Source of the DNA: a virus
Taxonomy: Duplodnaviria; Heunggongvirae; Uroviricota; Caudoviricetes
Direction: 5' to 3' (one strand)
Virus record (IMG/VR): IMGVR_UViG_2711768040_000007
Span: 1 to 14,406 of that record
DNA: 14,406 bases
A program made the translations under genes and the position numbers. Position 1 is the first letter of the stretch; each line of letters starts with the position of its first letter. The notes under the pieces are model-generated. The model saw nothing but the letters and a program-made list of their open reading frames with translations, was not told the origin of the DNA and made no database searches. Below, piece by piece: positions 2,432-12,960 of this stretch.

Positions 2432-2519
2432 TCAAGGTTATTTCTGGAAGTCAAGTCGTGAGTGATGAGGACTAACAAATACGGTGAACTCGATAAAGAG
2501 ATTCAGGACGAACTGGAGG

Positions 2520-2645
2520 CCAGGAATGATTGACAAATCACCAAGTGAGTTCAGCTACAAAGATTTATTGTCATAACGGGTTATGAGATCGACTTGGTGC
2601 GTGATATTCTTCGGGCCAGTTTGCTATGCGCCACCATGAGATGTT
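2520..2645 (+). promoter_or_regulatory. Candidate promoter/regulatory region upstream of the methyltransferase gene
   Basis: Perfect TTGACA hexamer at about 2530..2535 but no convincing -10. Inverted repeat CATAAC-gg-GTTATG at about 2572..2585. Intergenic and AT-rich. Confidence 0.25.
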
Positions 2646-4478
2646 ATGGCCCGCATGTTTGATACATTAGGATTTTACATTATGAATGTGCAACATTTTG
2701 ATTTTTTTACAGATAATGAGTTTTCTAATCTGGAAAGATATCAAACTTGTAAAGCCATGGCCAAAGGTTATGCGGGCAATTACAAAACCGGGCAGTCAAG
2801 GTTGATGCATGCCCGCTCATACTGCTTCAGCATCGTAGCTGCATATTGGGATACCCTTGCAAAAAAGCAAAAAAGCAGCATTAAAATGAGGGCAGTACCG
2901 CACACTGTTTACATAGAAGACATTCCATGTGATGCACGCGAGCTCGCTGAACGAACAGGTGAGCTTATTGCTCAATTTCCGGCGGAGGACGCTGGATATC
3001 TGATTGGGTCAATTTATACGGTAATGCTGCCATCCGCTTACCGTTCGGAATTGGGGGCTTACTATACCCCCCCACCTTTGGTAGCGCGTCTCTTGGACCT
3101 GGCTGAAAAGTCTGGTGTTGATTTTTCTCATGCATCGGTTATTGATCCTGCGTGTGGTGGCGGTGCATTTTTGGCACCAGTAGCCATTCGAATGTTAAAA
3201 AAAGACAAGGGGTCTTCCCCTGAATGGATGTTGAGGAGAATCAGTCGTCGTTTAAAGGGGATAGAAATCGATCCATTTGCGGCTTGGATGAGTTTGGTAT
3301 TGCTCGAATCTGTACTAATGCCACTATGTGTAAAGGTAAAACGTAGATTGCCTGAAGATACAATTATTGTTGCTGATGCGCTTCAGCAAGATAAAATTTC
3401 TGGTTATGATCTTGTGGTAGGGAATCCGCCTTACGGACGTGTCACTCTCGATATTAAAACGAGAGAAAAATATTCTCGTTCGTTATTTGGTCATGCAAAT
3501 CTATATGGATTGTTCACCGACTTAGCTGTTCGCATGGTTAAAGAGAAAACAGGAGTTATTGCATTTCTTACGCCAACTTCTTTTCTTGGTGGGCAGTATT
3601 TCACCGCGCTGCGAACCCTTTTGACCGAAAAAACTACTCCGTATGCCCTTGATTTCGTCGCTGACAGGGATGGGGTCTTTGACGATGTTCTCCAGGAAAC
3701 AATGTTGACAGCATTCAAGGCGGGAGAACATAAAGTTCGGGCCCAGGTATCCTCACTTGTCCCTAAGGGGTTGAACAAAGCAAAAATTGAGAAAATAGGT
3801 AATGTTGATATAGAAAAAGGTGGAGCAACGTGGCTTTTGCCACGAGTTAAAGATGATGCTTGTTTTCTTAATGTATTAAAACAGATGTCTACGCGTTTAG
3901 CTGATCTGGGATACTCAGTCTCTACAGGTCAGTTAGTCTGGAATCGATTTAAGTCGCAGTTGCGTACGACGAAAGGAAAAAATAGCTATCCATTAGTCTG
4001 GGCGGAATCAATAACTTCAGCTGGTTTCCGTTTTAGCGCAGACAGAAAAAATCATGTTCCCTATATCGATATAACCCCACAACAGGGTTTCCTTGTGACA
4101 AAATCTGAATGTGTGCTTGTTCAGCGGACAACATCGAAGGAGCAGGACAGAAGGATTTTAGCTGCGATTTTACCTCAGGGATTTATAGATGAAACTGGTG
4201 GCGTAGTAGTTGAAAACCATATTAATATTGTGTATTCAAACGGATTGTTCTCTGCGGTTCGCCCTGATGTTATTGATATGCTACTTAATTCGCATGTTGT
4301 CGATCGGGCGTTCAGGTGTATAAGCGGAAGTGTTGCTGTTTCGGCCTATGAATTGAATTCAATCCCGTTGCCTTCTCTGGAGCAGGTGATGGAGATTCAA
4401 TCGTTAATTGATGCCGGCGTCCACAGACGGATTATTGAGAGAACTATCGCTGGTTTCTATGGAGTGATGATTGCATGA
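2646..4478 (+). CDS. Gamma-class N6-adenine DNA methyltransferase (Eco57I/PstI-like family)
   Basis: Motif order GAYYTPP (X), IDPACGGGAFL (I, AdoMet binding), VVGNPPYG (IV, catalytic NPPY), followed by a long C-terminal region consistent with a target-recognition domain. An alternative start at ATG 2682 has a better SD (AGGA about 9 nt upstream). Region is conspicuously AT-rich. Confidence 0.8.
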   Translation: MARMFDTLGFYIMNVQHFDFFTDNEFSNLERYQTCKAMAKGYAGNYKTGQSRLMHARSYCFSIVAAYWDTLAKKQKSSIKMRAVPHTVYIEDIPCDARELAERTGELIAQFPAEDAGYLIGSIYTVMLPSAYRSELGAYYTPPPLVARLLDLAEKSGVDFSHASVIDPACGGGAFLAPVAIRMLKKDKGSSPEWMLRRISRRLKGIEIDPFAAWMSLVLLESVLMPLCVKVKRRLPEDTIIVADALQQDKISGYDLVVGNPPYGRVTLDIKTREKYSRSLFGHANLYGLFTDLAVRMVKEKTGVIAFLTPTSFLGGQYFTALRTLLTEKTTPYALDFVADRDGVFDDVLQETMLTAFKAGEHKVRAQVSSLVPKGLNKAKIEKIGNVDIEKGGATWLLPRVKDDACFLNVLKQMSTRLADLGYSVSTGQLVWNRFKSQLRTTKGKNSYPLVWAESITSAGFRFSADRKNHVPYIDITPQQGFLVTKSECVLVQRTTSKEQDRRILAAILPQGFIDETGGVVVENHINIVYSNGLFSAVRPDVIDMLLNSHVVDRAFRCISGSVAVSAYELNSIPLPSLEQVMEIQSLIDAGVHRRIIERTIAGFYGVMIA

Positions 4479-5557
4479 ATCTGCCTGTTGTTCCCCCATT
4501 GAATGTTATCCGGGAAAGATTACCATTAATTTTCCCTGAAGGGACTGAGAATCGTGGATATTTAATTCGGGAAATAGCTGCAAAAACAATTTTTGTCATG
4601 TTTTATGCTGGTGCGGTTGAGGGGCTGGGGCGATGGATAAGGCCCAGCCAGGTTGTAAGTATGGGAGATTCACAGGCTGCTCTTACTGATGATGCGTCCA
4701 GAGAAAGTTGGGTAAAGATGACTTTCTCTAAACAAAAGATAAGGCCTGCTGATGCATGGTATGCGGAAAATACGCGTGAGCCAATACGTGATGAAACTAT
4801 AAAAAATGGCCTAATACCTTGCAATGCAATTGTTGAGCGTAAAGGTATACCCACCACATCCTCTCATCCTCGTTACAGTTTGAATCGCTCTTTTGCAGCA
4901 CTCTTTGATGCCGGGCTTGAAGGAGATTCGCTGCTGAGTGCAATAAGTTCCTGGCAGGAAAATCATTTGAACAAAGCCGCTCTTGCTAGATTGCGTTTAT
5001 TGAAATCAGGGGCAGTGATTGCTGCTGATGCCGTAGTCGTCACTTTCCCAAATGGAGAGAAGAGAACTTTAGCTCCGGGCCCGTCAAGTACAATAGCTAA
5101 GGCCGTCATCGAAGTTTTTGCTCCTAATTTTCTTAAGAATCCAACTGTGCTCTGGTTGTCTGAATCTGGGAATAAAGTTGTTGCTCAGGATGATGTATTG
5201 GCAAAAGCATTGGGGCTGAATATTGATGCCTCAAAAGCACTTCCAGATATTATTTTGATTGATTTGGGAGAGGACCGAACGGGTTCGGATATGCTTGTAG
5301 TTTTCACTGAGGTAGTTGCGACAGATGGGCCTATAAACAGGGAACGAAAAGTTACTCTCACTCATTTGGCTATTGACGCTGGGTTCAGCGAGAAAAATCT
5401 TGCATTCCTTACGGCATTTATTGACAGAAGTGCTCTGCCTTTTAAAAAGGCAATACCAGAATTGGCGTGGGGATCTTATGCATGGTTTGCTTCTGAACCG
5501 GAGCACTTAATTGATCTTCGGGATGGTTATCCGGTAAAGATCAGCCAGAGAAAATGA
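4475..5557 (+). CDS. Putative type II restriction endonuclease partner (possibly BsuBI/PstI-like)
   Basis: Start overlaps the methyltransferase stop (ATGA), implying translational coupling. Same AT-rich composition. PDIILIDLGED...FTEVV is loosely PD-(D/E)xK-like. Family assignment is from memory, not a search. Confidence 0.5.
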   Translation: MNLPVVPPLNVIRERLPLIFPEGTENRGYLIREIAAKTIFVMFYAGAVEGLGRWIRPSQVVSMGDSQAALTDDASRESWVKMTFSKQKIRPADAWYAENTREPIRDETIKNGLIPCNAIVERKGIPTTSSHPRYSLNRSFAALFDAGLEGDSLLSAISSWQENHLNKAALARLRLLKSGAVIAADAVVVTFPNGEKRTLAPGPSSTIAKAVIEVFAPNFLKNPTVLWLSESGNKVVAQDDVLAKALGLNIDASKALPDIILIDLGEDRTGSDMLVVFTEVVATDGPINRERKVTLTHLAIDAGFSEKNLAFLTAFIDRSALPFKKAIPELAWGSYAWFASEPEHLIDLRDGYPVKISQRK

Positions 5558-5909
5558 ACAAAGTTTGATATCCGCCACGCCCTGAAGGATGAGGGTTTTG
5601 CGGTGCACTGGATAAAAAATCGGTTTCATAGATTTGCCCACCGTGGTATACGCCTGCGATAAAAACTTTATTGTCATCAACGGCAAAAGCAATAATCGTT
5701 CTGTGGCGGAAATGAGTTACCCGCATCCCCTGGCGAATATCATCGCGTTTATTGCCCCGATGCGGGAATGTAGAAAACCCATCAAGATAATCAAGAAGTG
5801 CATTGGCATAATTGTCAGCAATGACGTTCCCTGCTTTCTCAGTTATATATCTGTGCAGGTTGATTATTTGTTGTTCGGCCTCAGGAGTAATGATGACTTC
5901 ATATGTCAT
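5541..5909 (-). CDS. ParE/RelE-family type II toxin with a C-terminal extension
   Basis: Length and sequence character fit ParE-like toxins. It starts 5 nt downstream of the antitoxin stop. Its 3' end overlaps the convergent endonuclease gene by 17 bp. Confidence 0.65.
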   Translation of the reverse strand: MTYEVIITPEAEQQIINLHRYITEKAGNVIADNYANALLDYLDGFSTFPHRGNKRDDIRQGMRVTHFRHRTIIAFAVDDNKVFIAGVYHGGQIYETDFLSSAPQNPHPSGRGGYQTLFIFSG

Positions 5910-5914
5910 GCAGA

Positions 5915-6172
5915 TTACTTCCCGGATCGAATCGCGGCGCGAACCTGTGAAATGGAGCGTCCGTTGTTTGGGTTTTCGCGGATAGAATCAAGAGAGGGGG
6001 CGGCTGAATGCGTTAACCATGCTTCGATTGCTTTATCGCGCTCATTCAGTGCGCGAAGCCCTTCACGAATGACCTCGCTTTCTGAAGCATAGGCACCGGA
6101 AGCCACACGGGCGCGCACCATGTCAGCCATCTCGTTAGTTAATGTAATGCTGAATTGTTGGGTTGTACGCAT
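5915..6172 (-). CDS. ParD-like ribbon-helix-helix antitoxin, 85 aa
   Basis: Internal ATG (MRTTQQFSITLTNEMADMVRARV...) preceded by GAGG. RHH-like N-terminus with SESEVIREGLRAL. The track's 5915..6235 version is an N-terminally extended TTG-start reading. Confidence 0.65.
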   Translation of the reverse strand: MRTTQQFSITLTNEMADMVRARVASGAYASESEVIREGLRALNERDKAIEAWLTHSAAPSLDSIRENPNNGRSISQVRAAIRSGK

Positions 6173-6587: not shown

Positions 6588-7652
6588 GTGCGGGTATTAC
6601 TTAGACCTGTTCTGGTGCCGGAACTCGGGCTGGTGGTCCTTAAGCCAGGTCGTGAATCCATGCAGGTATTTCACAATCCTCGAGTGCTCGTGGAGCCGGA
6701 ACCGAAAAGCATGTGCGGCCTGCCATCCGGAGTCGTCCCTGCCGTTCGCCAGCCGCTGGCGGAGGATAAATCATTACTGCCATTTTTCAGCGATGATCGG
6801 GTGATTCGTGCTGCTGGCGGCGCTGGGGCACTGTCTGACTGGCTGTTGCGTCATGTCAAATCCTGCCAGTGGCCTCATGGTGACTATCATCACAGTGAAA
6901 TCGTCATACATCGTTATGGTATCGGTGCGATGGTGTTGTGCTGGCACTGCGACAACCAGCTGCGTGACCAGACCTCCGAATCACTCGGGCAACTTGCTCA
7001 TCAAAACCTGTCAGCATGGATGATTGACGTCATACGCCATGCAGTGAATGGCACGCAGGAGCGGGAGTTATCGCTGGCTGAATTATCCTGGTGGGCAGTC
7101 TGCAATCAGGTAGCGGACGCACTGCCGGAGGCAGTATTACGTCGCTCTCTGGGGGTACGAGCAGAAAAAATCCGCTCAATATACCGCGAGAGCGACATCA
7201 TACCGGGAGAACAGACAGCCACCAGCATACTGAAGCAGCGCACAAAAAATATTGCGCTACCGCCTCACGTCCACCAGCACCAGCAACAGAACCCACCACA
7301 GGAAAAGACGGTGGTCAGCATTGCCGTTGATCCGGAATCTCCGGCTCAGTATCTCCAGCGCCAGAAACCACAACGGGAAGAGATGCCTGTATACACGCGC
7401 TGGGTAAAAACGCAGAAATGCATGACGTGTGGCAATCAGGCAGATGATCCGCATCACATCATTGGTCATGGACTGGGAGGGATGGGAACAAAGGCTGACG
7501 ATTTGTTTGTTATTCCGCTGTGTCGTAAATGCCATAACGAACTACACGCCGGGGTAAAAGATTTTGAAGAAAAACACGGTAGTCAGTTGTTGTTGCTGAT
7601 TCGTTTTTTAATGCACGCGAGAAATTCGGGTGTTCTGAAGTGGAAAGCATAA
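6588..7652 (+). CDS. DUF968 (YdfU-like) prophage protein with two HNH-like zinc-binding motifs
   Basis: GTG start 6 nt after GGAGG. CMTCGNQADDPHHIIGHG...PLCRKCHNELH near the C-terminus and HHSEIVIHRYG...CWHCDN earlier. Position just upstream of rusA and Q is typical. Confidence 0.6.
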   Translation: MRVLLRPVLVPELGLVVLKPGRESMQVFHNPRVLVEPEPKSMCGLPSGVVPAVRQPLAEDKSLLPFFSDDRVIRAAGGAGALSDWLLRHVKSCQWPHGDYHHSEIVIHRYGIGAMVLCWHCDNQLRDQTSESLGQLAHQNLSAWMIDVIRHAVNGTQERELSLAELSWWAVCNQVADALPEAVLRRSLGVRAEKIRSIYRESDIIPGEQTATSILKQRTKNIALPPHVHQHQQQNPPQEKTVVSIAVDPESPAQYLQRQKPQREEMPVYTRWVKTQKCMTCGNQADDPHHIIGHGLGGMGTKADDLFVIPLCRKCHNELHAGVKDFEEKHGSQLLLLIRFLMHARNSGVLKWKA

Positions 7653-9229: not shown

Positions 9230-10279
9230 ATGGCCAATACTGTAAAAATATCCAGTTGTGAGTTAATCAACGCTGATTGCCTGGAATTTATCCAGACCTT
9301 ACCGGAAAATTCTGTCGATCTGATAGTCACAGACCCGCCATACTTTAAAGTGAAGCCCGAGGGCTGGGATAACCAGTGGGAGGGCGACGATGATTACCTG
9401 AAATGGCTGGACCAGTGTCTGGCGCAGTTCTGGCGGGTACTGAAGCCTGCCGGAAGTCTTTACCTGTTCTGTGGTCATCGCCTGGCATCTGACACCGAAA
9501 TCATGATGCGTGAGCGCTTTAATGTGCTGAACCACATTATCTGGGCGAAGCCGTCCGGACGCTGGAACGGGTGCAATAAGGAAAGTCTGCGGGCGTATTT
9601 TCCGGCAACAGAGCGCATTCTGTTTGCAGAACATTATCAGGGACCGTATCGCCCGAAAGATGATGGCTATGTGGAGCAGGGGCGCGAGCTAAAACAGCAC
9701 GTCATGGCCCCGCTGATTTCTTACTTTCGTGATGCGCGTAAATCACTGGGAATAACGTCAAAACAGATAGCGGAAGCCACCGGAAAGAAAAACATGGCTT
9801 CGCACTGGTTTGGTACCAGTCAGTGGCAGTTACCGAACGAGGGTGATTACAACAAATTGCAGGCGTTGTTTGCGCGTGTTGCAGCAGAAAAACATCAGCG
9901 CGGGGAACTGGAAAAGCCACACCACCAGCTGGTCAGCACATACAGTGAGCTGAACCGGCAGTATACGGAACTGCTGAGTGAATATAAAAATTTGCGGCGG
10001 TATTTCGGTGTGACGGCGCAGGTTCCGTACACCGATGTCTGGACGCATAAACCGGTGCAGTACTATCCAGGGAAACATCCGTGCGAAAAACCGGCAGAAA
10101 TGCTGCAGCAGATAATCAACGCGAGCAGTCGTCCGGGAGACCTGGTTGCAGATTTTTTTATGGGTTCAGGTTCAACGGTAAAAGCGGCGATGGCACTGGG
10201 GCGTTGTGCGATTGGTGTTGAGCTGGAGACCGGTCGTTTTGAACAGACAGTCAGGGAAGTTCAGGATTTAATCGTTTGA
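9230..10279 (+). CDS. Beta-class DNA amino-methyltransferase (N6-adenine or N4-cytosine), apparently orphan
   Basis: Motif IV LIVTDPPYF near the N-terminus and motif I DLVADFFMGSGST near the C-terminus. No adjacent endonuclease gene. Confidence 0.8.
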   Translation: MANTVKISSCELINADCLEFIQTLPENSVDLIVTDPPYFKVKPEGWDNQWEGDDDYLKWLDQCLAQFWRVLKPAGSLYLFCGHRLASDTEIMMRERFNVLNHIIWAKPSGRWNGCNKESLRAYFPATERILFAEHYQGPYRPKDDGYVEQGRELKQHVMAPLISYFRDARKSLGITSKQIAEATGKKNMASHWFGTSQWQLPNEGDYNKLQALFARVAAEKHQRGELEKPHHQLVSTYSELNRQYTELLSEYKNLRRYFGVTAQVPYTDVWTHKPVQYYPGKHPCEKPAEMLQQIINASSRPGDLVADFFMGSGSTVKAAMALGRCAIGVELETGRFEQTVREVQDLIV

Positions 10280-10328: not shown

Positions 10329-10404
10329 GGCCCTTTAGCTCAGTGGTGAGAGCGAGCGACTCATAATCGCCAGGTCGCTGGTTCAAATCCAGCAAGGGCC
10401 ACCA
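10329..10404 (+). tRNA. ileZ: tRNA with CAU anticodon (Ile2/lysidine type or Met)
   Basis: Perfect 7-bp acceptor stem GGCCCTT/AAGGGCC, D-arm GCTC...GAGC, anticodon loop CUCAUAA, T-loop TTCAAAT, encoded CCA. Symbol is by analogy with the tRNA cluster of Stx phages. Confidence 0.8.
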
Positions 10405-10411
10405 TCACATA

Positions 10412-10488
10412 CCGCCATTAGCTCATCGGCAGAGAGCGTCAGCTTTCGAAACTGGCTGTGTGGAGCTCGGGTCCCCGATGGCAATCCA
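10412..10488 (+). tRNA. tRNA-like gene, apparent anticodon UCG (Arg), non-canonical and possibly degenerate
   Basis: Good D-arm and encoded CCA end, anticodon loop TTTCGAA, but two mismatches at the acceptor-stem end and an atypical T-loop (CTCGGGT). Confidence 0.45.
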
Positions 10489-10501
10489 TTATCTGCATTA
10501 T

Positions 10502-10578
10502 GCGTTGTTAGCTCAGCCGGACAGAGCAATTGCCTTCTAAGCAATCGGTCACTGGTTCGAATCCAGTACAACGCGCCA
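10502..10578 (+). tRNA. argO: tRNA-Arg, anticodon UCU
   Basis: Perfect acceptor stem GCGTTGT/ACAACGC, anticodon loop CTTCTAA, T-loop TTCGAAT, encoded CCA. Symbol by analogy with Stx-phage tRNA clusters. Confidence 0.8.
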
Positions 10579-10590
10579 CGCTTATTTTTC

Positions 10591-10616
10591 CAGGCTCGCT
10601 TCGGCGGGCCTTTTTC
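10591..10616 (+). terminator. Intrinsic terminator downstream of the tRNA cluster
   Basis: Stem GGCTCGC / GCGGGCC (one G.U pair) around a TTCG tetraloop, followed by TTTTT. Confidence 0.5.
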
Positions 10617-10753
10617 ATATCCGCGCCACGCCCGGCGCACATCAAAAAACCACAGAGCCTTTCAGGGGTGAGCTTACGGGATGGTCAGTGTGACTTTCTC
10701 TGTGGGCTGGTCACCCCCGGGCGCAGGCTCACCCACTAAAAGGAAAAGTCACG

Positions 10754-11179
10754 ATGTTTGGTATTTTCAAAAAGAAAACCCGCAAGGCCATTACCGAAGT
10801 GAAGAAGATGGAGAACCGCGATGCGGTGGAAGCGACTGTCTGGGGCGCATATTCCATTGCATACGCTGACGGTACCTGTGACGCAAAAGAAATTGCGGTG
10901 CTGGAAAAAACCATTGCAGCACTTCCGGCTTTTGCGCCGTTCTCGGGTGAGATTGCACAAATGAGTGCAAATATCCGCGCCCGTTATGAAGCGTCACCTC
11001 GTAGTGCGAATGCTCAGGCTTTGCGTGAACTGGCTGACGTGGCAGGAACCGCCGAAGCGGTTGATGTGCTGTGCCTGTGTCTTGATATTGCTGACCAGGA
11101 TGGCATTGGTCCGGATGAAGAAGCACAGCTCAAGAAAATTGCTCAGGCGCTGCAGTTGCCGCTGGAGCAGTACCTGTGA
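10754..11179 (+). CDS. TerB-like (tellurite-resistance TerB / DjlA N-terminal-like) protein, 141 aa
   Basis: ATG after AAAGGAAAAG. Acidic helical protein with paired ADG/D...E motifs typical of TerB-like domains. Confidence 0.55.
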   Translation: MFGIFKKKTRKAITEVKKMENRDAVEATVWGAYSIAYADGTCDAKEIAVLEKTIAALPAFAPFSGEIAQMSANIRARYEASPRSANAQALRELADVAGTAEAVDVLCLCLDIADQDGIGPDEEAQLKKIAQALQLPLEQYL

Positions 11180-11809: not shown

Positions 11810-12074
11810 TATTCCAGGACTGCTGAATGTGGCGCTATGTACAGTTATCGTGCTGGCGCTTTTTTTCTACCGCCGAAAAGATGCCACGCATAAACCGCTG
11901 GTGTCGTGGTTGGCCTGGCTGCTGATGCTTGTCTATGCGGTCGCGCCGCTCAGTTTTCTGTGCGGTCGTCCTCTTCCCGGTAACTGGGCGGTGGTGCTGG
12001 CTAATCTGTTGTTCTGTGTGCTGGTGGTATGGGCGCGCGGGAATGTGTCAAAAATCCTTTCATTACTGAGGTAA
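11799..12074 (+). CDS. Putative holin or antiholin, 91 aa, about three transmembrane segments
   Basis: Overlaps the upstream gene by 11 nt. Hydrophobic segments with a charged loop. Immediately precedes the endolysin. Confidence 0.45.
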   Translation: MAGNIPGLLNVALCTVIVLALFFYRRKDATHKPLVSWLAWLLMLVYAVAPLSFLCGRPLPGNWAVVLANLLFCVLVVWARGNVSKILSLLR

Positions 12075-12076
12075 GT

Positions 12077-12472
12077 ATGTCGGGAAAATTCATATTTAGT
12101 CGTCGCAGTGAAAAGAATCTGGAAGGCGTTAAGCCGCAACTGGTGGCGGTAGTGCGTCGCGCTCTGGAACTAACGGAAGTTGATTTTGGTATCACCGAAG
12201 GCCTTCGCAGTAAATACCGTCAGAAACAACTGGTCGCCGCAGGCAAAAGCCAGACGATGAACAGCCGGCACCTGACTGGTGAAGCGGTTGATGTATTACC
12301 GGTTGGTGCTGACTGGAATGATTACAAATGCTGGCTACCTGTATTGAGGGCATTTTACCAGGCTGGCAATGAGCTGGGCGTGAAACTTCGCTTTGGTATC
12401 ACCTGGACATCAAATCCTGATGATAAGCCAGCACGTTTTCTTGATGCTCCGCATATTGAACTGGGGTCGTGA
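12077..12472 (+). CDS. Endolysin, peptidase M15 family (L-alanyl-D-glutamate peptidase type)
   Basis: SRHLTGEAVDV zinc-binding motif. GAGG SD embedded in the end of the upstream gene. Confidence 0.8.
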   Translation: MSGKFIFSRRSEKNLEGVKPQLVAVVRRALELTEVDFGITEGLRSKYRQKQLVAAGKSQTMNSRHLTGEAVDVLPVGADWNDYKCWLPVLRAFYQAGNELGVKLRFGITWTSNPDDKPARFLDAPHIELGS

Positions 12473-12960
12473 TGAAAGATATTCCAGGTTTTGGTGGTAA
12501 ATATAAAATATCTGATTCTGGTGAGGTGGTTGGGCCATCAGGAAGGATTCTGAAACCCAGGCGTGATAAAGATGGATATTTGCGGCTCAATATGATGCAC
12601 CCTAAAAAAGGGCGAGACACCTACCTTATTCATCGCCTGGTAATGCTGACATATAGAGGGGAAACACCAGAGGGTTACTGCATTGATCATATAGACGGAA
12701 ATAAGAGAAATAATTATATAGGGAATCTCCGTTTTGCGCGCCCATGTCAAAATGCATGGAATTCCCGTCGACGCAAAGGTAGCTCAGGAGTGATTGGTGT
12801 GCACAAAAACAAAGGTAAATTCCAGGCCAGAATATCTGTCAACAAAAAAAGAATTTATCTTGGGCGGTTTAATTCTCCAGAGGTTGCTGCAGTTGCTCGT
12901 GATTCGGCTGCAAGGCTGTTTCATGGAGAGTTTGCTTTATGTAATTCTCCCACCGGTTGA
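12472..12960 (+). CDS. HNH homing endonuclease with NUMOD4-like N-terminus and AP2 DNA-binding domain
   Basis: IPGFGGKYKISDSGEV (NUMOD4-like), CIDHIDGNKRNN (HNH), GVIGVHKNKGKFQARISVNKKRIYLGRF...AA (AP2-like). Start overlaps the endolysin stop; GTG 12469 is an alternative start. Confidence 0.8.
   Translation: MKDIPGFGGKYKISDSGEVVGPSGRILKPRRDKDGYLRLNMMHPKKGRDTYLIHRLVMLTYRGETPEGYCIDHIDGNKRNNYIGNLRFARPCQNAWNSRRRKGSSGVIGVHKNKGKFQARISVNKKRIYLGRFNSPEVAAVARDSAARLFHGEFALCNSPTG

Follow-up and report, generated by a model that had tools for sequence, protein, structure and literature searches.

A predicted PstI/BsuBI-family restriction-modification system of two genes as swapped-in cargo in a lambda-like prophage

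Restriction-modification (RM) systems borne by prophages change which phages and plasmids a lysogen accepts and can reshape its methylome and transcriptome, as has reportedly been shown for EcoGIII in E. coli O104:H4. EcoGIII resides on Stx2-converting lambdoid phages and is found in E. coli O104:H4, O111 and O145. Experiments have demonstrated that it methylates CTGCAG, cleaves at this sequence and restricts lambda-like phage (PMC6602927). This M.EcoGIII/R.EcoGIII pair of Stx2 phages is the closest characterised relative of the locus described here. In the literature we found short PstI-type systems directed at CTGCAG (EcoGIII, Psy9853I and an Acinetobacter BsuBI homologue) and no characterised system of the 598/360-aa type reported below.

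In this study, we analysed a stretch of 14,406 nt (the window) from a lambda-like prophage, which is predicted to carry a complete two-gene RM system of the PstI/BsuBI family as swapped-in cargo (Table 1). It is most likely (probability of about 0.85) that the region is an intact and selectively maintained type IIP RM operon, representing a distinct deep branch of the PstI/BsuBI/SdaI lineage with a 598-aa methyltransferase (M) and a 360-aa endonuclease (R), and that leader, M and R together constitute a self-contained moron cassette in a variable slot of the lambdoid prophage. A system of this kind, an ordinary phage "moron", is known, and nothing about it is conceptually unexpected.

Table 1. 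Positions in the window of the cassette, its parts and the adjoining genes
Feature	Positions	Strand	Evidence
Swapped-in cargo module (leader, M, R)	2432..5611	.	Homology breaks, GC, genome distribution
Conserved non-coding leader travelling with the cassette (promoter predicted)	2573..2681	+	Conservation among cassettes
Gamma-class N6-adenine DNA methyltransferase M, 598 aa	2682..4478	+	Pfam, PADLOC, motifs, AF2 model, homologue lengths, dN/dS
M-R junction: GGAG 4461-4464, ATGA stop/start overlap 4475-4478	4461..4478	+	Sequence read directly
BsuBI/PstI-family type II restriction endonuclease R, 360 aa	4475..5557	+	Pfam, SdaI match, AF2 model, invariant residues, dN/dS
ParE toxin (5598-5909) and ParD antitoxin (5915-6172)	5598..6172	-	Pfam, RefSeq annotation in two loci (L001/L002)

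The 360-aa protein is, by all comparisons made, clearly assignable to the BsuBI/PstI family of restriction endonucleases. The initial annotation had considered this assignment its weak point, and it proved to be the strongest part of the case, with agreement among both Pfam domains, PADLOC and the sequence and fold of SdaI. A profile search against restriction-enzyme families, proposed earlier as a check, matched both BsuBI/PstI domains, PF17728 (2.1e-30, 105.8 bits) and PF06616 (1.5e-44, 151.5 bits), each above the Pfam gathering cut-off of 27 bits; the PADLOC REase_II model PDLC03589 (364 positions) was matched over its full length with 429 bits. SdaI (2ixs) was the sole significant match in the PDB by sequence (3.2e-16) as well as the sole significant Foldseek match (6.5e-16, probability 1.00) of the AF2 model (pLDDT 82.5), followed by a weak tail of other PD-(D/E)XK nucleases such as McrC, Bse634I, MspJI and MunI. 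R has the SdaI-like two-domain fold, in which an N-terminal DNA-binding domain precedes a C-terminal nuclease domain of the PD-(D/E)XK type. The alternative suggestion of a methyltransferase with a novel partner is superfluous.

The putative catalytic motif of R comprises PD at residues 257-258 (nt 5243) and E279 (nt 5309). Across 57 subfamily members P257, D258, E279, V281 and K234 never vary, and the EcoGIII-type enzyme has them too; G285 and P286 are further invariant residues that the EcoGIII-type enzyme retains. Over the 57 homologues 85 columns are invariant, PD258 and E279 among them. Where SdaI has EAVK, R has EVVA and thus lacks the lysine at this place, and the active EcoGIII-type enzyme (ESVT) likewise lacks it. 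R is under strong purifying selection, with a dN/dS of 0.049-0.061 at dS > 1.

The product of the upstream gene had been described as a gamma-class N6-adenine methyltransferase, and this is borne out by motif order, Pfam and the folds of gamma enzymes. Motif I (DPACGGGAF, aa 155-163 of the 598-aa form, nt 3144) is followed by motif IV (NPPY, aa 248-251, nt 3423) and then by a C-terminal domain of ~300 aa; this succession of motif I, motif IV and C-terminal target-recognition domain is the gamma order. The protein matched the Pfam families Eco57I (3.6e-13) and N6_Mtase (6e-09) and, over the full length, the PADLOC MTase_II model PDLC03338 (994 bits), and its AF2 model (pLDDT 87.8) had its best fold matches in the gamma enzymes CamA, M.BseCI and M.TaqI. 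Strong purifying selection acts on M as well (dN/dS 0.055-0.069, dS > 1).

Mechanically, two long ORFs are read on one strand, 2646-4478 (610 aa from the first ATG) and 4475-5557 (360 aa). The true start of M is most likely the ATG at 2682 rather than that at 2646, because the latter is out of frame in three of four close homologues owing to indels of 1-2 nt, the length of M is 596-598 aa in all homologues examined, and a TAGGA Shine-Dalgarno sequence is conserved before the later start in all examined homologues of 61-92% R identity. We also considered the upstream peptide from ATG 2646 as a conserved element and rejected it, since close homologues have either lost it or carry frameshifts in it.

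As expected of type II systems, M and R are separate adjacent genes on one strand, with an overlap of 4 nt. The ATGA overlap reported earlier is real: in TTGCATGAATC the ATG of R occupies 4475-4477 and the TGA of M 4476-4478. A conserved GGAG sits ~10 nt upstream of the R start. The homologues from Kluyvera, Citrobacter and Serratia have the same GGAG-N10-ATGA arrangement, and so does phage phi191 in its EcoGIII-type operon, whereas M and R abut without overlap in the homologues from Klebsiella and Burkholderia. Translational coupling of the two genes is plausible, and it would be non-obligatory, because R has its own conserved GGAG and the Klebsiella and Burkholderia genes merely abut. The claim that no nuclease can be produced unless the methylase is produced too was thus overstated.

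With the window as blastn query, homology to two RM-less prophages (L004 and L005) stops at 2431/2435 and restarts at 5612, which delimits a module of 3.18 kb. Position 2432, previously given as the start of the pair, is the first base past the stop codon of the upstream gene; it does not mark the start of M, and it coincides with the point where the swapped-in module begins on the left. The GC content of the module is 43.7%, compared with 51.1% in the left and 50.1% in the right flank, and the lowest-GC 3.18-kb segment of the whole sequence begins at 2351, nearly coincident with the module, so that the pair is indeed more AT-rich than its flanks, though modestly. Horizontal acquisition, which had been suggested from this composition, is supported because of the exact breakpoints relative to prophages without the pair and the presence of the same cassette in other genera. 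The slot has replication/Ea22 genes on one side and the DUF968-RusA-Q late-control genes on the other, and related E. coli prophages contain ~1.2 kb of unrelated small genes there instead of the module. Next to the cassette and convergent with R lies a ParE/ParD module (Pfam ParE_toxin 4e-10, ParD_antitoxin 2e-07). It was rejected as a part of the cassette, since it is also found in RM-less prophages, outside the homology break, and it is common prophage backbone. A prophage orphan methyltransferase is encoded at 9230-10279 of the same window.

Identical DNA of the module was present in 2 of 5,426 complete E. coli genomes, whereas its flanks are shared by thousands of genomes of this species. 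RefSeq PGAP names the identical E. coli genes HsdM-family methyltransferase and BsuBI/PstI family type II restriction endonuclease. In Kluyvera and Citrobacter, lambdoid prophages carry the same cassette in the same slot at 79-83% nucleotide identity, and more distant relatives were identified in Serratia (a P2-like prophage), Klebsiella (a defence island) and Burkholderia (conjugative plasmids). Relatives also occur on the Burkholderia chromosome and on 24 IMG/VR viral contigs, and the family is found on SGI1-type islands as well. The pairing of M with R was kept in all homologous loci examined. By megablast, DNA-level similarity was absent against all 50,697 phage records.

The leader in front of M probably provides the cassette with its own promoter, 5'UTR and ribosome-binding site, the promoter being predicted from conservation. 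Among five cassettes 74% of the leader columns are invariant, compared with 24% (M) and 19% (R) of third codon positions, and homology with the Kluyvera and Citrobacter cassettes starts at 2523 and 2573. The leader contains the TAGGA sequence (2668-2672) and a candidate extended -10 element (TGaTATTCT, 2602-2610), as read from the conserved block alone, with a predicted transcript start near 2617; a simple sigma-70 consensus scan returned no + strand promoter in the leader, and a terminator scan returned neither a terminator after R nor a terminator-like + strand site before the cassette. A regulatory RNA in the leader was rejected, its fold stability being no higher than that of shuffled sequence (z = 0.10). 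In early M coding sequence, an 18-nt inverted repeat (2697-2745) was dropped because it coincides with conserved codons (RYQT) and is lost in distant homologues. We found no C-protein gene in the conserved leader: the only ORF of at least 20 aa is a TTG-initiated one of 22 aa (2594-2662), which is too short for a helix-turn-helix controller, and the remaining small ORFs precede the leader. A 78-aa HTH-like ORF was seen upstream of the Burkholderia homologue only.

Our leading guess for the recognition sequence is CTGCAG or a site with that core, to which we would give about even odds. To our knowledge, all characterised members of the BsuBI/PstI family recognise CTGCAG or a site containing it, and the N-domain motif YAxx(S/T)RExxR of R is common to the EcoGIII-type enzyme and SdaI. 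CTGCAG was undepleted both in 0.89 Mb flanking 80 homologues (O/E 0.93, rank 55 of 64 palindromes) and in the window (6 sites versus 4.4 expected), in uncontrolled counts of low power. The most depleted palindromes around the 80 homologues were CTCGAG, GGGCCC and GGATCC, which, in a comparison made without control genomes, looks like generic avoidance in GC-rich genomes. Tentatively, this branch might recognise a site other than CTGCAG, as a new type II prototype, and/or be controlled without a C protein via the unusually conserved 110-nt leader and the 5' end of the M coding sequence. Such control could work, for example, by a promoter that is methylation-sensitive or autoregulated by M. If true, leader-based control would explain safe establishment in new hosts via lambdoid phages, P2-like phages and plasmids.

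Under the reading of the region as a defence cassette, the lysogen would transcribe the cassette from a promoter of its own within the conserved leader, and during lytic growth the cassette would probably also be read through from the early-right transcript. M, as a gamma-class m6A enzyme, would be translated first, and R would start at the GGAG-ATGA junction inside the end of M; we propose that the output of R is therefore tied to that of M and lags behind it. M would methylate the adenine of a short palindrome on host and prophage DNA, and R, which combines an N-terminal DNA-binding domain with a C-terminal PD...E nuclease core, would cut that palindrome wherever incoming phage or plasmid DNA carries it unmethylated. 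In this way the lysogen would gain defence against superinfection, and cells that lose the prophage would also suffer post-segregational restriction.

It could be argued that the chief selective role is this stabilisation of the prophage and not defence, in that methylation dilutes after loss and residual R kills the segregant, alongside ParDE. The family resides on many mobile elements (lambdoid and P2-like prophages, conjugative plasmids and SGI1-type islands), and selfish type II RM systems are typically spread over mobile elements in this way. The directly adjoining ParE/ParD module points the same way; however, its adjacency looks incidental, because ParDE is widespread backbone that is present without RM in thousands of genomes. 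Moreover, the related EcoGIII system restricts incoming lambda-like phage (PMC6602927), and addiction is compatible with defence, the two not being mutually exclusive. We therefore regard stabilisation as the chief role as rather doubtful. We consider it unlikely that the cassette serves the lytic cycle, with early-right expression, degradation of unmethylated host DNA by R and pre-methylation of progeny by M against hosts with isospecific RM. Its embedding in the early-right gene string, on the same strand between the replication genes and Q and with no terminator-like + strand site on either side, would suit such a role, but the strongly conserved leader accompanies the cassette even in non-phage contexts (the Klebsiella island and the Burkholderia chromosome and plasmids), which favours autonomous expression, and host DNA in a lysogen would be methylated beforehand.

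Very improbable, finally, is an inactive R that would in effect make M an orphan methyltransferase, serving epigenetic or regulatory purposes. Orphan methyltransferases are common in prophages and the same window has one, and the canonical PD-(D/E)XK lysine is missing from its expected place in R. On the other hand, the active EcoGIII type has the same non-canonical motif, R is of full length with a dN/dS of ~0.05 and with PD258 and E279 among its invariant columns, and the pairing of M and R is conserved in every context examined. An intact operon, maintained as a pair, is the reading that we prefer. This cassette is rare in E. coli yet mobile across Proteobacteria on lambdoid and P2-like prophages, islands and plasmids, and thus neatly illustrates the exchange of a defence moron at a fixed variable slot. 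It also marks a branch of the PstI family that is widespread and whose specificity a single methylome could reveal.

Like EcoGIII, the present system is a two-gene operon in M-then-R order on a lambdoid prophage, with a gamma-type m6A methyltransferase, a BsuBI/PstI-family endonuclease and the same type of junction. Compared with the EcoGIII-type pair of phi191, M and R show ~26% identity each, over 355 and 276 aa (6e-27 and 2e-21), and the identity to any characterised enzyme is only ~20-27%. M is longer (598 versus 489 aa) and differs in its N-terminal half, R is 360 versus 317 aa, and the phi191 pair lies beside the cI/cro immunity region, whereas the cassette here lies between Ea22 and the DUF968/RusA/Q region. 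Given the 26% identity, the absence of a megablast match and the separate PADLOC models, we rejected an orthologue of EcoGIII or PstI, that is, the same enzyme with the same specificity. PstI, BsuBI and AplI (CTGCAG), the founders of PF06616/PF17728, share the two-domain endonuclease family with R. The 317-aa REase_II model PDLC03420, which we take to represent the PstI/BsuBI/AplI group, gave R 96 bits; R matches the separate longer model PDLC03589, and its partner methyltransferase has ~600 aa compared with ~500 aa in M.PstI and M.BsuBI.

SdaI (PDB 2ixs; CCTGCAGG), the sole solved structure matched by R, shares with it the order of DNA-binding and nuclease domains and the motifs Y-A-x-x-(S/T)-R-E-x-x-R, G-x-K, P-D and E-x-V. 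The two are ~19% identical in structural alignment, with a global TM of 0.40-0.45 that is low because of domain orientation; SdaI recognises 8 bp and has EAVK in place of EVVA. YenI-type enzymes are M-R fusions (PADLOC PDLC03359, 840 positions; PHROG 1639, 838 positions), and M matches this type with 94 bits and R with 47 bits. Here, M and R are separate polypeptides that match the two halves of the fused YenI-type model.

The initial annotation had read 2432-5557 as an AT-rich restriction-modification (RM) pair carried as cargo in the early region, a methyltransferase gene (M) followed by an endonuclease gene (R), with the endonuclease assignment as its weak point. Our analysis supported the feature as real and its RM interpretation, and the nuclease is now the firmest part. 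A profile search matched the R product to the BsuBI/PstI endonuclease family in both of its domains (PF17728, 2.1e-30; PF06616, 1.5e-44), and the match to the PADLOC REase_II model was full-length (429 bits). SdaI was the sole PDB match by sequence (2ixs, 3.2e-16) as well as the sole significant fold match of the R model (pLDDT 82.5; Foldseek 6.5e-16, probability 1.00). Residues K234, P257, D258, E279, V281, G285 and P286 do not vary within the subfamily, and all of them recur in the EcoGIII-type enzyme, which belongs to the PstI-like RM pair of Stx2-converting lambdoid phages (phi191 copy compared here). On the other hand, the lysine of SdaI EAVK is Ala in R. The EcoGIII type, an active enzyme, has Thr at this position, which makes the loss of the lysine a characteristic of the family rather than evidence of decay.

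M is a gamma-class N6-adenine methyltransferase, as proposed, on the evidence of Pfam (Eco57I, 3.6e-13; N6_Mtase, 6e-09), motif order (DPACGGGAF, motif I, before NPPY, followed by a domain of ~300 aa), a full-length match to the PADLOC type II methyltransferase model (994 bits) and a confident AlphaFold model (pLDDT 87.8, pTM 0.86) whose best matches were CamA, M.BseCI and M.TaqI. Translation very probably starts at the ATG at 2682 (598 aa), because homologues are 596-598 aa long, a TAGGA ribosome-binding site ahead of 2682 is kept in all examined homologues of 61-92% R identity, and three cassettes (that of Kluyvera and two from viral contigs) carry indels of 1-2 nt between 2646 and 2682. The two ORFs overlap by ATGA as described, and GGAG lies 10 nt ahead of the R ATG. 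This junction is common to the Kluyvera, Citrobacter and Serratia copies and the EcoGIII-type operon; in the Klebsiella and Burkholderia copies M and R merely abut. Compared with the Kluyvera and Citrobacter copies, M and R showed dN/dS of 0.05-0.07 at dS of ~1.0-1.7.

Horizontal acquisition was supported by homology breaks relative to pair-less prophages and by the same cassette in other genera. The GC dip is also real: the module (2432-5611, leader plus M and R) has 43.7% GC versus 50-51% on either side, and the 3.18-kb stretch with the lowest GC in the entire sequence starts at 2351. Homology to related E. coli prophages without the pair breaks at 2431/2435, just past the stop codon of the preceding gene, and picks up again at 5612, which lies 14 nt within parE at its 3' end; between these points those prophages have ~1.2 kb of different small genes. 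Thousands of E. coli genomes contain the flanks, ParDE among them, and 2 of 5,426 contain the module (VL7S7 and FDAARGOS_943, with an identity of at least 99.3%). ParE/ParD is thus common prophage backbone and not part of the RM cassette.

One IMG/VR proviral contig shows 99.9% identity. Kluyvera and Citrobacter carry the same cassette (window 2515/2573 to 5562, 79-83% nucleotide identity) in the corresponding slot of lambdoid prophages that otherwise differ. More distant members have R identities of 61-76%. One of them, an M-R pair of Serratia marcescens whose R is 75% identical (L012, 4208-7083), lies in a P2-like prophage, with the gpA replication gene on one side and the portal/terminase genes on the other; two unrelated temperate phage types therefore carry this RM subfamily as cargo. 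The Klebsiella relative adjoins an IS3 element in a defence island, and other distant carriers include the Burkholderia chromosome, B. glumae conjugative plasmids and 24 viral contigs. The R family comprises 995 representative clusters at E <=1e-3. Gene pairs of the same family type by description, a BsuBI/PstI-type endonuclease with an N-6 DNA methylase, have been reported in SGI1-type islands (PMC9035990).

The window comes from a lambdoid prophage and spans its early-right, late-control and lysis genes, almost all of which lie on the plus strand. Its layout agrees with that annotated by RefSeq in near-identical E. coli prophages. Given the orphan methyltransferase, the prophage encodes two methyltransferases. 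The Met-CAT tRNA is probably of the Ile-lysidine type, because RefSeq names its homologue tRNA-Ile. The tRNA/TerB position, between Q and holin, is where Stx phages carry stx.

Features of the window in gene order
Feature	Coordinates	Strand	Remarks
Replisome-organiser fragment
DUF977
DUF4406
Ead/Ea22-like gene
Small phage gene			PHROG 1621
Near-palindrome	2571-2586		TCATAACGGGTTATGA
Leader	2573-2681		109 nt
Direct repeat	2583 and 2636		ATGAGAT
Possible extended -10	2602-2610		TGaTATTCT
M	2682-4478	+	mechanical ORF from 2646
ATGA overlap	4475-4478
R	4475-5557	+	360 aa
ParE toxin/ParD antitoxin	5598-6172	-	convergent with R
DUF968 protein	6588-7652		C-terminus also matches putative HNH nuclease domain (HNHc_6, 1.4e-07)
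RusA
Q-like DUF1133 protein
Orphan DNA methyltransferase	9230-10279		Pfam N6_N4_Mtase 1.9e-44; PADLOC MTase_II 527 bits
Three tRNAs, then TerB-like moron	10329-11179		Met-CAT, Arg-TCG, Arg-TCT; 'tellurite resistance', PHROG 632
Holin
M15 endolysin	12029-12472
HNH_3 + NUMOD4 homing-endonuclease-like ORF	12469-12960		inserted in lysis cassette; start overlaps endolysin end

The leader travels with the cassette, and 74% of it is invariant among five cassettes versus 19-24% of synonymous sites; over 2573-2762, which adds the first ~80 nt of the M coding region, 74-83% of columns are invariant. We propose that it contains the cassette's own promoter, with the candidate extended -10 recognisable in the Klebsiella copy too. 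This assignment remains a proposal because a consensus scan called no promoter in the leader. With such a promoter the cassette could be expressed in a repressed lysogen. M would be made first, with R partly coupled to it, and M would methylate a palindromic site whose unmodified copies on incoming DNA would be cut by R. No controller (C) gene was found in the window's cassette. In a Burkholderia cepacia locus (L016, 3965-4201), a 78-aa helix-turn-helix-like ORF, absent from the enterobacterial prophage cassette, ends 4 nt ahead of the homologous methyltransferase gene and may encode a C protein.

As to the recognition sequence, the characterised members found (EcoGIII, Psy9853I, BsuBI, PstI and AplI) all recognise CTGCAG or CCTGCAGG, as do YenI and SdaI. 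Homology of both M and R to the EcoGIII-type pair extends along most of each protein (26% identity), and the N-domain motif YAxx(S/T)RExxR is common to R, the EcoGIII type and SdaI. On these grounds a site with a CTGCAG core is our best guess, at roughly even odds, because the identity is too low for certainty and crude site-avoidance tests gave no support for this core.

In conclusion, the pair belongs to, and probably works like, the PstI/BsuBI/SdaI endonuclease family with a gamma m6A methyltransferase, and the identical E. coli genes are already correctly annotated in RefSeq. It is not orthologous to any characterised enzyme and constitutes a distinct, longer subfamily, for which PADLOC has models of its own. 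Its closest biological precedent, EcoGIII of the Stx2 phages, is likewise a lambdoid-prophage moron.
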